A stretch of DNA of 64,000 bases from a virus (IMGVR_UViG_3300027762_000009:474-64473), one strand, 5' to 3'. Positions 4,087-63,986 are shown, counted from the stretch's first letter. The notes: generated from the letters alone by a model not told the origin. Translations and numbers: made by a program.

Positions 4087-7000
4087 CTAACATTTACTAA
4101 AACCACAATTATAACAAACAACACAACCCTCAGCTCTTATAATTGACTCTTTACACTCAGGACACACCGTTCCCATTTCAATAAACTCGTCGGATTCTTC
4201 CATAGGAATAATAGAATCTAATTCTACAGAGTCTCTCGATAATTGAGTTAAACACTCTAAACCATCAGTAGTTTCTTCTGTTATATCCTCACTAAGCAGA
4301 TTAACTACATCTTTTAATACACGCCCTATTACATCTGGACATGATTTACCCTTTAATGTTGAATCCTTCCCAGCCTGATGTCTAAAATTATCACAACGTA
4401 CAGAATTAAGCTGATCTATGATCTCCTCTGCAGGAACTCCATAGCGCAATGCAATAGAAATCAATCGTGCCATACCATCAGCATATCCGGCACACCCACC
4501 ACCTGATAATCTTAATAGAGTCTCATACGGACGATCACCTACAGTATTCACAGTAATCAACATCTTACCACAGCCTGTAGATACCTGTTTTGTAATCCCA
4601 GTTAATTCCTCAGGTCTTTTAAGTGGCTTAATTTCCTTTTGAGGCTCCATCAAAGCGGATTGGCGGTATTCACAATCACCACACACTGGTACGTCCGCAG
4701 ATTCAGACGTATCTGCTTTTTCTTTGTTATTTTCACCCTTAGAAAGAGGTTGACTATTTCTTGAACCATCTCTATATACTGTAATACCTTTACAACCTAA
4801 TTTATAGGCAAAGAGAAAAGATTCTTGTATTTCTTCAGGCGACACGCCATTATCAAAGTTGATGGTCTTTGATACTGCATTATCTGTATATTCTTGAAAA
4901 GCTGCTTGCATACGAATATGTTCAAACGGATGTATTTCATTAGATATCTTAAATACCTCAACTAATTCAGGCATAATAGCATTAGCTCTTTGTACAGAGC
5001 CTGTTTCTTTAACTAAATCTAATATATGCTGTTTCACATCGGTACCTAAATTAAAATTCTCTAATGCTTGTAAGAAACAGCTATCATACATAGTCATCGT
5101 ATCTCCATCGGCAAGAGTTTTAGTTGTTAATAAGCCAAACAACGGTTCAATACCGCTTGATACACCCGCAATAATGCTTAACGTACCAGTGGGTGCGATT
5201 GTTGTCGTAGTAGCATTCCGAATTGACACACCCTCAGATGCCCATACTGAGTATTCCCAATTAGGAAATACCCCTTTAGTTTGTGCTAATAGCATAGAAG
5301 TTTCTTTAGATACGTCGTCTATAAAATGCATTATTCTTTCCGCCAATAAAAGAGCTTCTGCGGAATCATAAGGGATGCCTAATTTGAATAACATATTAGC
5401 CCAACCCATTACACCTAAACCAATTTTTCTATTCTTTTTAACTTGTATTTCTATTTGGGGTAGTGGATATTTATTGATGTCAATTACGTTGTCTAGAAAA
5501 CGCACAGCTATTTGAGTAACCGTTTTCAAGCGACTCCAATTAATACTTAAATCTGCTTCTCCTTTTACGACATAATCTAAAACCATATTTGATAAATTAA
5601 TTGACCCTAAGTTACAAGCCTCATAAGGTAATAAAGGTTGTTCGCCGCAATTATGAATTAAAACATAATTAGCAAAGAAATTATGGCACTCTTCTACTTC
5701 CATATCATAAACATCTTCAGTATAGTCTAAGGGTACCACAGAAAGAAGACGCATATTAGCTCCTACAGGATGTACTCCCAATTTATTAGACCAATTTTTA
5801 TCTTCTTTTATATTGGGTAGCCATCTACCTGTAGAGGGATCATGTTGCATCCAATCAATATGACCCTTATTGCTTAAAACAGAATGATCTCCATGATTTA
5901 ACACTTCTAAATTACTAAAGGCATTGTTTTTTCTATTATTGTCTTTATGATGTACATCCTTACCAGCCATATCTCCATAATAATGCTGAGCAATAAAAAT
6001 ATGTTCAGCAGGTACACTAGACCCAGTTCCAGTTAAATACACTTTAGTATATCTTTGATTTTTGGGTGCTACATTTAAAGCTACTAATTTATCAGTAGGT
6101 AGTAAATATTGAGCTTCTATATAACCTCTATTACGTGTATAAAATTTATGATCCGGTGTACAAATAACATTACCTTTAGTTGTAGATACTTTTAGCAATT
6201 TAGCATTCATCTTAGTTAGACGAATATTTTTTGCTTTACGTATAGTCAATTGATATTTATCATTTACGCAATAAACATCAATCTCCTTTCCAACTAAATC
6301 TTTAATAGCAATCATACCCTCAACTGTTTTAATTAATGTATCACCAACTACGCAAGGATTAGTACTTTCTATATCTCCTAATGCAGGAAGTGTATTGTGT
6401 TTATTTATTTCATCTATGAAAATAACTCCAGGTTCTCCTGTGGTCCAGGCGCGTGTACTTATTTTATCCCATATTAATTTAGGATCTATTTTAGCATAGT
6501 CAATATTACCAAATTTTAAAGTAAAAGGGGTGTTATTTGAGAGGCATTGCATAAATTCTTCAGTTATAGCTACAGACATATTAAAATTAGTGAGTTGCTC
6601 TAAGTCTGCCTTAGCATCTATAAATTCCAATATATCAGGATGATCTATACGCATAACAGCCATATTAGCTCCACGACGGGCTCCTCCTTGTTTTACTTCT
6701 TCAGTTGCGGCGTTGAATACTCGCATAAAGCTTAATGGACCACTTGCCTCACCCACTGTACTTGTAACTGGATCTTCCTTAGGACGCAATCTACTAAAGT
6801 TAAATCCAGTTCCTCCCCCTGTTTTCTGAATAAGGGCCATATCTTTGATTGCTTGAAAGATACCTTCCATTGAATCCTCTACAGGTACAACAAAACATGC
6901 AGCCAATTGTCCTAGAGGTCTTCCTGCATTCATTAATGTAGGTGAATTGGGTAAAAAATCTAATGAAGCCATGATATTGTAGAATTGTTTGGTTAATTTG

Positions 7001-7194
7001 TCTACAGCTTTATCTATTTCTTCTCGATTATATTTAGCTTCCTGTAAATAAACTATCTCCGCTTTGGCAACACACTCAGCAACACGTAAAAACATTTCTT
7101 CCGGTGTCTCACCTCTTAAATATCTCTTCTTTAATACACGAAATGCATTTTCAGTTAACGCTTTTACTGGTTGAAATTGTATTTCTGAATACAT
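4087..7194 (-). CDS. nrdJ: Class II (B12-dependent) ribonucleotide reductase containing an intein
   Basis: [79 protein letters not shown]-terminal Zn-ribbon. Confidence 0.95.
5650..6354 (-). mobile_element. Intein (235 aa) with HNH homing endonuclease, inserted at the RNR active-site NPC/GE motif
   Basis: Begins CVVGDTLI after STNP; block [30 protein letters not shown]; ends VYDMEV..HNFFAN..IHN before C+1 of CGEQ. Confidence 0.93.
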
Positions 7195-7206
7195 TTTAAC
7201 TCCTCC

Positions 7207-7770
7207 TTAGTTATTTATATTTTCACGATATTTCAATAAAATCTGCTGGTATTTCTCTGTTTTGAAATATCCGCAGGAATTAAACTCAAAACACCATCCA
7301 CGATAGACACATTCCGGGACACATACACTAACTAATTCAGGTTCAAAATCCTTGATAGAAGATAAAAAAGCAGTCCAAGTGACAACTGTCTCAGGTGCTG
7401 CGCAGCCAGTGCACAATCTTCTACGCGAAATGTTAATAATTGCCTGTGCATTTACTTCGATTTCATGTTCGACAAAATTACTTTGAGGTAAATCATCACG
7501 AGCAATTCCAGTACGATCAGATCTTTGTGTACGAACAAAATGCAGGATACCTACCCAATGTCTTACTAAATGGACAGAAATCCATGATTTAAGTTCATAC
7601 CATTTAGCTTTGAAGATAAGTTGACGTATAGGTGAATGTTCACACAGCAATACCTGTTTTTTCCATCTAGGAGAGGGCTCTCGCTTGCCCTCAGCCTTGT
7701 TTACGGTAGTTCTCGCGGAATTAAGAACCTCTTTCCACGTTCCTTTACTTCCCAAGAATCTTATAAACAT
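7207..7770 (-). CDS. thyX: Flavin-dependent thymidylate synthase (ThyX-like)
   Basis: EHSPIR, ISVHLVRH, TQRSDR, INISRRRLC, PECVYRG motifs of phage ThyX. Confidence 0.8.
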   Translation of the reverse strand: MFIRFLGSKGTWKEVLNSARTTVNKAEGKREPSPRWKKQVLLCEHSPIRQLIFKAKWYELKSWISVHLVRHWVGILHFVRTQRSDRTGIARDDLPQSNFVEHEIEVNAQAIINISRRRLCTGCAAPETVVTWTAFLSSIKDFEPELVSVCVPECVYRGWCFEFNSCGYFKTEKYQQILLKYRENINN

Positions 7771-7779
7771 AGTAACCTC

Positions 7780-62864: not shown

Positions 62865-62886
62865 ATTAATCAAAGGGAGGGAGCAT

Positions 62887-63252
62887 ATGCAAGAAACGGG
62901 AGCGCAGTCGATAAATGAATTAATTAACAAAACCAATAGTGAAATTATCTTGTTCTTTATCATTATTGCCATACTATTTCTTATTCTAGCAATTCCATTA
63001 TCAAGAATCTTAATGGATAATAAAAGAAAAGGCAAAGAACAAGATATAAAAGCACAAAAATTACTTATTGATGTTATCAAAGGTAACTCTGATGTGATGA
63101 GTCAATTGAAAACTGTTCTAGAATCAACAAATTCTAATTGTGCTAAATGTAAGGCAGAACAACTTATGTGCTTTAAAAGAATAGAGGATAAACAGAATGC
63201 GAACATGATTATACTAACTAAAATAGAAAATAGATTAGAACCAAAATTATGA
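62887..63252 (+). CDS. Holin-like single-TM protein
   Basis: N-terminal TM segment plus coiled coil, immediately before the endolysin. Confidence 0.6.
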   Translation: MQETGAQSINELINKTNSEIILFFIIIAILFLILAIPLSRILMDNKRKGKEQDIKAQKLLIDVIKGNSDVMSQLKTVLESTNSNCAKCKAEQLMCFKRIEDKQNANMIILTKIENRLEPKL

Positions 63253-63266
63253 AAGGAGGTAATAAC

Positions 63267-63986
63267 ATGAAACATCGAGTGTACATTGCCGCATCGACTC
63301 AAAAGGAAAATGTTGGTGTAGGACAATACGGTAATGAGCAGGATAGGATGCAATTTCTAGCTAATAGAATTGTTTATTGGCTGAGTACACAAACAGGAAA
63401 ATTTACAACCTTTAGAAATCAACCAGGTTGGTCTTTACAACAAACTATTAATGATTGCAATAAATTGGCTTGTCAGATCTTTATTGACAATCATACAAAT
63501 GCGGGTCCATCAGGAGCGGACGGAACTGAAGTCTATTACCACCGCACTGGTACGGGAGGAGGTAAAAAACTTGCTGAATGTCTTTTTACCCAAATTGGTC
63601 CCTTATCACCCGGATCTGATCGTGGAGTATTAAGTGATCTTACTCTTTACACAAATGGCTTAGCCGTTTTAAGACAAACTACACCTCCAGCAGCTTTAAT
63701 TGAGCATATTTATCACTCTAATATTAAAGAAGTACAGCACTACTTAAATAATATCGAAGCATATGCAAAGGCAACCGCAATTGGTATATGCAATTATTTC
63801 GGTGAAAAATGGATAGAACCTTCTAGTGATTCTCGTACCAGTGTGTTTTCTCTGGTTGACGAAATGTTCCGCGATGGATTAATCACTGATAAAGGATATT
63901 GGTATAAGGTCTTGCAAGGAGAAATTCCGCCAAAACCTGAATACTTACAAATCTTATTTGGTCGTATGGTATCCAAAATAGGCTAA
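63267..63986 (+). CDS. Endolysin, N-acetylmuramoyl-L-alanine amidase (Amidase_3)
   Basis: HTNA..ADGTEVYY, LAVLRQT..PAALIE..YHSN. Confidence 0.9.
   Translation: MKHRVYIAASTQKENVGVGQYGNEQDRMQFLANRIVYWLSTQTGKFTTFRNQPGWSLQQTINDCNKLACQIFIDNHTNAGPSGADGTEVYYHRTGTGGGKKLAECLFTQIGPLSPGSDRGVLSDLTLYTNGLAVLRQTTPPAALIEHIYHSNIKEVQHYLNNIEAYAKATAIGICNYFGEKWIEPSSDSRTSVFSLVDEMFRDGLITDKGYWYKVLQGEIPPKPEYLQILFGRMVSKIG

Follow-up and report, generated by a model that had tools for sequence, protein, structure and literature searches.

A strand-specific, evenly spaced DNA word written through the genes of an uncultured phage family, and its possible role as a replication-start signal

Distribution of the word in the viral genome

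The stretch of DNA analyzed here (the window) comprises 64,000 nucleotides, bases 474-64473 of the 64,473-bp IMG/VR virus record IMGVR_UViG_3300027762_000009, which is rated 99% complete, and this report concerns a short DNA word, CTGGTACG, that is dispersed along its whole length. The word occurs in 23 exact copies, 13 on the plus strand and 10 on the minus strand, and the copy numbers and positions given in an initial annotation of the same DNA proved exact. Most copies lie inside genes of the phage, among them those for RNR, the UDG-PolA fusion, QueE, an SNF2 helicase, an HNH endonuclease, PrimPol, and the terminase subunit TerL. The window genome is labeled G000 and four word-bearing relatives are labeled G001 to G004; the sites, in window coordinates, are as follows (ORF, open reading frame; nearby copies in relatives are given with their maximal distance).

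4686-4693, plus strand, antisense in the RNR gene
5182-5189, minus strand, sense in the RNR gene; G001 copy at most 5 nt away
9804-9811, plus strand, antisense in UDG-PolA; G001 copy at most 4 nt away
14259-14266, plus strand, antisense in QueE
14474-14481, minus strand, sense in QueE
20071-20078, minus strand, sense in the SNF2 helicase; G003 copy at most 1 nt away
20254-20261, plus strand, antisense in SNF2; G001 copy at most 10 nt away
23890-23897, plus strand, antisense in the HNH gene
27386-27393, plus strand, sense in PrimPol; G001 copy at most 1 nt away
27595-27602, minus strand, antisense in PrimPol; G001 copy at most 3 nt away
30161-30168, minus strand, antisense, end of ORF 29901-30188
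30223-30230, plus strand, intergenic; 62 bp from the 30161 site
31321-31328, minus strand, antisense in ORF 30394-31485
33700-33707, plus strand, intergenic
37764-37771, plus strand, sense in the N-terminal piece of TerL
44699-44706, minus strand, antisense in the scaffold gene; G001 copy at most 1 nt away
46296-46303, plus strand, sense in ORF 46025-46339
49301-49308, minus strand, antisense in ORF 49051-49512
53115-53122, minus strand, antisense in ORF 49750-53496
53369-53376, plus strand, sense in ORF 49750-53496
59094-59101, plus strand, sense in ORF 57637-61467
63547-63554, plus strand, sense in ORF 63249-63986
63834-63841, minus strand, antisense in ORF 63249-63986

Selection on DNA rather than protein

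The word, CTGGTACG or in its looser form TGGTRCG, is a real, conserved, strand-specific, and evenly spaced signal at the level of DNA. In 100 dinucleotide-preserving shuffles, the mean count of CTGGTACG was 0.50 (standard deviation, 0.73; maximum, 3) and none reached 23, in line with the earlier rough estimate of fewer than one chance copy; the full 64,473-bp record likewise contains 23 copies, and the reversed-word control was 0. The proposed over-representation also persisted against 300 synonymous-codon shuffles within genes, which keep every protein and the per-gene codon usage and leave the 2 intergenic copies and overlap codons unshuffled; these gave 3.35 copies (standard deviation, 1.04; maximum, 7) against the 23 observed. 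The majority of copies (21 of 23) fall in ORFs of at least 80 codons and the other 2 are intergenic, and all six reading frames are used, the word being read as the peptides TGT, VPV, YQ, RTS, LVR, and WYD. Alignments of the proteins across the sites with their G001 and G003 orthologues are mostly free of insertions at the word, indicating that it was written into existing coding sequence and did not arrive as mobile elements. A protein-level origin was thus rejected on the grounds of the six frames, the excess over codon shuffles, and the mostly uninterrupted alignments, and the view of the initial annotation that selection acts on the DNA is borne out.

Other simple origins were considered as well. 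Promoters or terminators were rejected, as the sites lie within genes and are balanced between sense and antisense. A hairpin or single-strand-initiation structure was unconvincing: folding energies were just 1 to 2 kcal/mol below those of random windows, and not consistently so between genomes, and the G+C content of the sites exceeds that of the background. Among the matches listed in a full-text literature search, which include a phage genome announcement, none was concerned with a phage DNA signal, judged from titles and the openings of abstracts.

Flanks of the word and a second upstream element

The run of only C and A that had been noticed by eye before the word is present at nearly every site: C or A occupies positions -5, -4, -3, -2, and -1 of CTGGTACG at 23, 22, 21, 23, and 23 of the 23 sites, respectively, and the bias reaches to about -8. 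Counts in the relatives indicate that the true core, missed at first, is TGGTRCG preceded by C or A; this looser form adds 7 weaker copies in the window, and the whole word, including the C/A run, has about 13 constrained positions. Immediately 5' of TGGTRCG, a stretch of approximately 10 nt is poor in G in both subgroups of the family, with G at 0 to 9 of 81 and 0 to 13 of 82 sites over positions -1 to -10.

A second element, (C)GCGG(A), which had also escaped the first inspection, lies 23 to 40 nt upstream of the word. The 80 nt upstream of the word contain GCGG at 13 of the 23 sites (2.2 expected) and CGCGGA at 6 (0.1 expected). Copies of CGCGG counted from their own side stand 26 to 43 nt before a TGGTRCG in 9 of 22 cases in G000 and 9 of 17 in G001. 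Over 292 sites in 23 related sequences, GCGG is most frequent at -31 to -40, and a weak G-rich patch is found about 12 nt further upstream of the element. TCGCGGAA is moderately enriched in G003 and G004 (in G004, TCGCGGA 11 versus 2.6 and CGCGGAA 13 versus 3.3 expected); most of these TCGCGGAA copies are not near TGGTRCG, so the upstream element is perhaps a second, independent word. It resembles CTGCGGA, a form of the dispersed word of Bacillus phage BSP7 described below.

Spacing and strand

Along the plus strand of the window, the gaps between sites range from 2,837 to 8,532 bp, with a coefficient of variation (CV) of 0.33 compared with 0.89 in simulation; none of 5,000 simulations was as even, and the recurrence every 3 to 8.5 kb that had been described is therefore confirmed as more regular than chance. 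The largest plus-strand gap, 8,532 bp, has a P value of 0.008. Evenness is weak on the minus strand (CV, 0.58; P = 0.08), and the pooled sites of both strands are not even (P = 0.16). In the relatives, the minus strand of G003 has a CV of 0.32 (0 of 5,000 simulations as even), the minus strand of G004 a CV of 0.51 (P = 0.0004), and the plus strand of G002 is even at P = 0.02; pooled-strand CVs are weaker than per-strand values across the genomes (P from 0.009 to 0.21). Close same-strand pairs are scarce, with 1 in G003 against 6.9 expected and none within 500 bp in the window. The mean same-strand gap is 2.3 to 4.9 kb in 9 of the 10 strand sets and 9.9 kb on the minus strand of G002, so that sites are available on both strands at the scale of lagging-strand synthesis and more evenly than chance would place them.

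The sense and antisense counts in G000 to G004 are 15/13, 11/11, 7/9, 21/22, and 19/16, without bias to the transcribed strand, and the window sites span 4.7 to 63.8 kb and are not clustered in one origin region. The seven opposite-facing pairs pointed out in the initial annotation are a real excess in the window, where they lie 62 to 496 bp apart (7 versus 1.9 expected; P = 0.0008), but this part of the pattern is not conserved: the excess is not significant in the relatives, which have 2 (G001), 2 (G002), 10 (G003; 6.8 expected), and 3 (G004) such pairs.

Conservation among relatives sharing the capsid

Alignment of the major capsid protein fetched 80 viral loci, and the word was counted in ten related whole records. 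CTGGTACG occurs 19, 17, 12, and 10 times in G001, G002, G003, and G004, once in G005, not at all in G006, G007, and G008, and 3 and 4 times in G009 and G010. TGGTRCG reaches 28, 23, 45, and 37 copies in G001 to G004, an outcome that upholds conservation of the word in relatives, compared with 8, 4, 3, and 5 in the unenriched A/T-rich relatives G005 to G008; the more G+C-rich G009 and G010 contain 14 and 15 copies, which is no enrichment. G001 to G004 share the whole replication module with the window and G005 to G008 share just the structural genes, and the contrast between the two groups can therefore not single out one reader of the word. The places of the sites are partly kept. A copy within 10 nt was found at 6 of the 16 sites in ORFs with a G001 orthologue, at 2 (8879 and 20071) of the 14 sites mappable to G003, 12 of which are CTGGTACG sites, and at 0 of the 11 mappable to G002, yet the four relatives carry 23 to 45 copies, indicating that selection maintains density and spacing and not particular sites. 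G006 (loci L107 to L110), which is devoid of the window's word, is rich in the palindromic GCCGCGGC (22 versus 1.3 expected) and CGCCGCGG (20 versus 0.8).

Different words and primase families in more distant phages

A wider set of contigs was fetched with the DpdA3-like protein of the window (a guanine transglycosylase homologue, see below) as the query, and the DpdA3-like gene is thus shared among them by construction. Contigs with at least 40% identity in this protein are enriched for TGGTRCG, except L134 (G020), in which TGGTRCG was found 0 times in 12 kb and no enriched word was detected in the whole 17.4-kb record. In L134 (17 kb), the DpdA3-like gene (41% identity) stands beside FolE and a divergent PolA.

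Contigs with 26 to 33% identity carry a different dispersed word, of the CCTGTGC type, which lies within genes, on both strands, and in several frames; it takes the form of CCTGTGCG in G014 (18 versus 1.0 expected), CCCTGTGC in G012 (36 versus 2.7), CCCTGTGG in G016 (10 versus 0.4), and CCTGTGC in G017 (15 versus 1.8). A third word was found in cultured phages. Bacillus phage BSP7, which has the same module, contains CRYCTGCGG 31 times against 0.5 expected, 8 on the plus and 23 on the minus strand, with all of its annotated genes on the plus strand, and Weizmannia phage Youna2 contains CTGCGG 40 times against 13.1 and CRYCTGCGG 25 times (5 plus, 20 minus). A literature search on BSP7, Youna2, BSTP5, and BSP19 yielded one relevant paper, which deals with Youna2 and its endolysin; at the level of listings and the starts of abstracts, no DNA word is mentioned there and no description of the BSP7 word was found. 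The full module with a DpdA3-like gene and no comparable word is seen in G013 (91% complete) and in the complete Brevundimonas phage StAshley; G015, G018, and G020, all of them fragments, also lack a dispersed word despite a DpdA3-like gene, and phiST, which has DpdA3 and a different replication module, has no dispersed word of this kind. The UDG-PolA fusion is common to nearly all these records, AAA_24, the Cas4-like PD-(D/E)XK nuclease, and SNF2 to most of them, and the Que genes are also common to the lineages with differing words.

The primase is not. In the window family (G000 to G004), it is an archaeo-eukaryotic primase (AEP) PrimPol of the P4 family, and the word is TGGTRCG. In G012, G014, G016, and G017, it belongs to a RepB-like cluster defined by phmmer, and the word is CCTGTGC; the Pfam RepB match is weak in G011, G012, and G016, and only G016, which also has a DUF3987 match, exceeds the curated cut-off. 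BSP7 encodes a DnaG zinc-ribbon and Toprim primase together with an MCM-like ATPase, Youna2 has a primase (by annotation only) in the same place, and both carry CRYCTGCGG. The wordless G013 and StAshley have a primase of the DUF3854 type. Three words thus go with three primase families and none goes with the fourth, over four lineages only and confounded with descent; to this extent the word co-varies with the primase family, as a primase reader predicts.

Several further repeats were set aside. G011 (L205 to L207), which has a RepB-like primase, was dropped as a carrier of a related dispersed word, its enriched word being palindromic hairpins: about ten, evenly spaced, with arms of the types CTGCACACGC and GCGTGTGCAG (for example, at 9511/9531, 15653/15675, and 20427/20448) and no T-run after them, which might be single-strand initiation signals or regulatory hairpins. 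Dense local words in the PrimPol contigs L246, L255, and L242 are clustered iterons, operators, or an array and are not dispersed. The L242 repeats, at 15459-16847 of a 95-kb viral contig, comprise 18 near-identical units of about 30 nt on one strand, mostly 60 to 75 bp apart, a layout like that of a CRISPR array.

Candidate reader genes and genome context

The genes of the window that could read, cut, modify, or bind the word, together with their immediate partners, are given below.

27025-29403, plus strand, PrimPol-helicase, candidate reader, with the domains Prim-Pol, PriCT-1, D5_N, DUF5906, and Pox_D5
23726-24472, minus strand, HNH endonuclease, candidate nickase, 48 to 61% identical in all 4 motif-bearing relatives
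24584-25429, minus strand, homeodomain-like helix-turn-helix (HTH) protein; a related HTH gene directly precedes the primase gene in BSP7 and Youna2
25974-27008, plus strand, ATP-dependent DNA ligase, 44 to 64% identical in all 4 motif-bearing relatives
11083-11853, minus strand, DpdA3-like guanine transglycosylase, assigned by fold and tblastn
11869-15188, minus strand, preQ0 pathway: QueC (11869-12564), kinase and MazG-like ORFs, FolE (13477-14106), QueE (14122-14748), and QueD (14745-15188)
8418-10889, minus strand, UDG-exonuclease-PolA fusion, a hallmark of the shared replication module

The C-terminal part of PrimPol matches TIGR01613, the P4-family primase model, with 195 bits against a cut-off of 108.7, and a search of viral contigs with PrimPol as the single-protein query returned no matches. 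The HTH protein has paralogues, three members in all (24584-25429, 33004-33444, and 35766-36146). For ORF 11083-11853, no Pfam or NCBIfam match was obtained, and an alignment profile of the DpdA3-like proteins found nothing significant among PDB sequences; the nine best PDB fold matches of its predicted model (pLDDT, 76) are all tRNA-guanine transglycosylases or DpdA, and its tblastn matches comprise CGPG_00065 of Cellulophaga phage phiST, Campylobacter phages, and BSP7-like Bacillus phages. CGPG_00065 has been named DpdA3, a subfamily reported in the available text of PMC10516641 to replace all G.

Annotated genes also include SSB, an AAA_24 ATPase, a PD-(D/E)XK nuclease, an SNF2 helicase, and structural genes. 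No close cultured relative was found by megablast of 24 kb, and PolA matches reach about 30% identity at best. The RNR gene (4087-7194, minus strand) contains an intein at residues ~295 to 515 with an HNH_3 endonuclease domain, and the protein ends in a TSCPD domain. TerL is split between ORFs 37688-38269 and 39173-40132 (plus strand) with a free-standing HNH endonuclease ORF (38362-39045) between them, an arrangement reminiscent of an intron or of a split gene, with a homing endonuclease. The region 301-3266 (plus strand) encodes, one after the other, a 681-aa protein with an arabinofuranosidase-B-like stretch and a papain-family (C1) cysteine protease, an unusual phage cargo. For a sigma factor (22662-23411, minus strand), the highest scores are those with the sporulation sigmas SigK, SigG, SigF, and SigE, none of which reaches its cut-off, and this hints at a Firmicute host; the host labels of metagenome bins disagree (Eubacteriales, Bacteroidales, and Christensenellaceae). 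Contigs of the phage are present in 4 DNA datasets from 3 studies, with 330 letter differences and with no RNA dataset among those listed, and at ~31705-31806 the contig of the likely source run breaks at a repeat that it skips, depth changing from 25.5 to 54.8 beyond.

Possible function in priming or replisome start

We tentatively take the word to mark strand-specific priming or replisome-start sites for the phage PrimPol-helicase, a reading that we hold to be possible though short of probable. The G-poor, C/A-rich run and TGGTRCG would together form a cis-acting signal that is read one strand at a time, at which the phage's own PrimPol-helicase may start primers or reload the replisome, perhaps with the help of the adjacent HTH protein. 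Recognition would fall to the fixed core, and copying of the template would begin with the G-poor 5' flank; sites recurring evenly on each strand every 2.3 to 9.9 kb would spare the lagging-strand template long unprimed stretches. The (C)GCGG(A) element, ~31 to 40 nt further in the 5' direction, may mark a hand-off or a stop. We infer the reading of the word by a primase from this arrangement, from the primase encoded in the same genome (Prim-Pol, PriCT-1, and D5 helicase domains in 27025-29403), from the co-variation of word and primase family, and from the template words that other AEP primases require.

Several points weigh against such a role. The co-variation comprises four lineages, is confounded with descent, and separates lineages that differ also in HTH and other genes. 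Known primase words have 3 to 5 nt, with one of 8 nt, so that about 13 specified positions would be unprecedented, and it would be odd for three unrelated primase families each to become so choosy. Within the window family, the PrimPol of G002 is the most divergent (36% identity), yet its word, the C/A run with CTGGTACG, is the same as in the window, and G003 and G004 have a closer PrimPol (57%) but a looser word. Two contigs with a PrimPol 33% identical show no clear enrichment over the 12 to 18 kb of each that was covered (4 copies versus 1 for the control and 3 versus 3), and G011 has a RepB-like primase with palindromic hairpins in place of a dispersed word. The window word has GTA, not GTG, and the upstream GCGG element is without a role in the priming model.

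A broader proposal, which we advance with somewhat greater reserve, is that these phages use a distributed replication-start code: strand-specific words of 8 to 13 nt, placed through genes at lagging-strand intervals, one per primase family, in phages with genes for 7-deazaguanine DNA; the G-poor stretch next to the word may offer the primase an unmodified template first.

Alternative readers of the word

If virion DNA carried programmed single-strand nicks like those of T5, phiKMV, and tf, the HNH endonuclease (23726-24472) would cut at the word and the ligase (25974-27008) would seal it after injection; we regard this as unlikely. Phage tf supplies a close formal precedent, a 9-mer with R and M degeneracy that is present 14 times, its places being similar in relatives, and the preference of the strong word for the non-coding strand in BSP7 (23 of 31) and Youna2 (20 of 25) is matched by phiKMV-type nicks, as far as the text available from PMC3517423 describes them; the HNH and ligase genes, moreover, are kept in all four motif-bearing relatives at the identities listed above. 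That same text confines the three known groups to one strand and places 11 of the 14 tf sites within the genome's left half, whereas the window has 13 plus and 10 minus sites of unusual evenness and without sense/antisense bias. Outside the window family, G012 was the sole word-bearing record in which an HNH homologue was seen (25% identity), several uncultured contigs being incomplete, and BSP7 has no ligase among its annotated features (first 50 kb), nor did blast and phmmer find a ligase homologue there. Binding of double-stranded DNA by the homeodomain-like HTH proteins (24584-25429, 33004-33444, and 35766-36146), for genome organization, packaging, or global regulation, is very improbable. 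There are three paralogues in the window, a related gene that immediately precedes that for the primase in BSP7 and Youna2, and an HTH cluster in G000, G002, G003, BSP7, G011, G012, and G014; evenness per strand and not in the pooled sites, however, is unexpected from a reader indifferent to orientation, StAshley and G018 have the HTH family and no word, and the sites ignore gene boundaries and direction, so that they are not promoters or terminators.

Chi-like or recombination-control signals would call for a translocating helicase-nuclease that reads them in single-stranded DNA (SNF2, the Cas4-like PD-(D/E)XK nuclease, and a Sak4-like ATPase of the phage, or the host AddAB/RecBCD), and would limit degradation or seed recombination-dependent replication; we consider both this reader and these functions improbable. 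Strand specificity, and even spacing that keeps the next site from being far off, would suit such an enzyme, and the helicase, nuclease, and ATPase named are common to every word-bearing lineage, but G013 and StAshley have the same core genes and no word. Chi words are rich in G and T, as is the complementary strand of the window word, which speaks for the comparison; the known ones are also 5 to 8 nt long, and the greater length of the window word speaks against it. The window family shows no orientation bias (13/10 by strand, 15/13 sense/antisense), and the core word is shared by BSP7 and Youna2, phages of Bacillus subtilis and Weizmannia coagulans, suggesting that it is set by the phage and not by the host, which again disfavors a Chi-like signal. 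Comparably improbable, in our view, are regularly spaced 7-deazaguanine-linked marks, sites at which the DpdA3-like transglycosylase would act or which it would spare. The predicted fold of ORF 11083-11853 fits such an enzyme, the gene occurs in every word-bearing lineage with the preQ0 genes where the record reaches (partly by choice of the query), and the words of three lineages share CTG; 23 to 30 sites would amount to ~0.1% of genome G, and some DpdA classes are reported to modify as little as this in the accessible part of PMC10516641. The gene nevertheless belongs with DpdA3, which the same source reports to replace all G in phiST, CP220, and immuto 2-6A, and phiST itself, like G013, StAshley, G015, G018, and G020, has a DpdA3 or DpdA3-like gene without a dispersed word, so that the case for DpdA3 as a site-specific enzyme is weakened. 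Known DpdA target motifs have 2 to 3 nt and are not described as enriched in the text available on them, and neither enrichment nor even spacing is called for in the target of a protective modification.

Under any of these readings, the words constrain codon choice genome-wide and may serve as a marker of this group of phages. DNA-level signals inside genes easily escape notice; the window word is among the strongest demonstrable by counting alone, and it persists across a family known only from metagenomes. The same kind of signal in BSP7 and Youna2, cultured phages of laboratory-type hosts, opens the readings to bench tests. Were the words priming sites, some phage primases would be far more selective than textbook primases, and their needs would have shaped synonymous sites in the genome. 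Nicks or modification marks would extend two long-unexplained features of phage DNA, in the case of nicks to both strands.

Comparison with known systems

Like Chi, the window word is over-represented, asymmetric, and apparently read on one strand. The Chi sequence is dictated by the enzyme of the host; it is shorter, and its orientation follows replication, whereas the window word has no orientation bias and follows the phage lineage. A likeness to the origin iterons of P4-family systems lies in the C-terminal part of PrimPol, which matches the P4-family primase model, and P4 alpha is said to bind an octamer iteron. Such iterons sit in clusters at one or two origin regions; the window word, in contrast, is spread genome-wide over both strands, with no same-strand pair inside 500 bp.

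The nick sites of T5, phiKMV, and tf share with the window word a consensus of 9 to 19 nt, many copies, positions within genes, places partly conserved in relatives, and a function that is called enigmatic in the text available from PMC3517423. A common consensus is present at every window site (23 exact copies). Confinement to one strand is not observed (13 plus, 10 minus), and the known nick sites are unevenly placed, whereas the window sites are evenly spaced on both strands and have been recognized from sequence alone.

The words of AEP-type primases offer a further comparison. According to the parts of the sources available, pRN1 ORF904, which has a C-terminal winged-helix domain, needs GTG (PMC2777425), NrS-1 PrimPol, for which both an 8-mer and GTG(A/G) serve, begins synthesis at the first base 5' of the word (PMC8718748), and the AEP primase GP55 of phage 1706 uses CCAAC/CCCAAC, composed of C and A only (PMC12205980). 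The initial annotation had cited the NrS-1 8-mer as enriched in its genome; this was not confirmed, the available text of the source saying just that GTG sites far outnumber the 8-mer. These words are 3 to 8 nt long and come from biochemistry, not from genome-wide, evenly spaced, selected words, whereas that of the window has ~13 constrained positions and GTA for GTG and is known here through sequence comparison only. In common with these systems, the window encodes a PrimPol fused to a superfamily 3 helicase, and its word joins a C/A run, a flank of restricted letters, to a GTR center.

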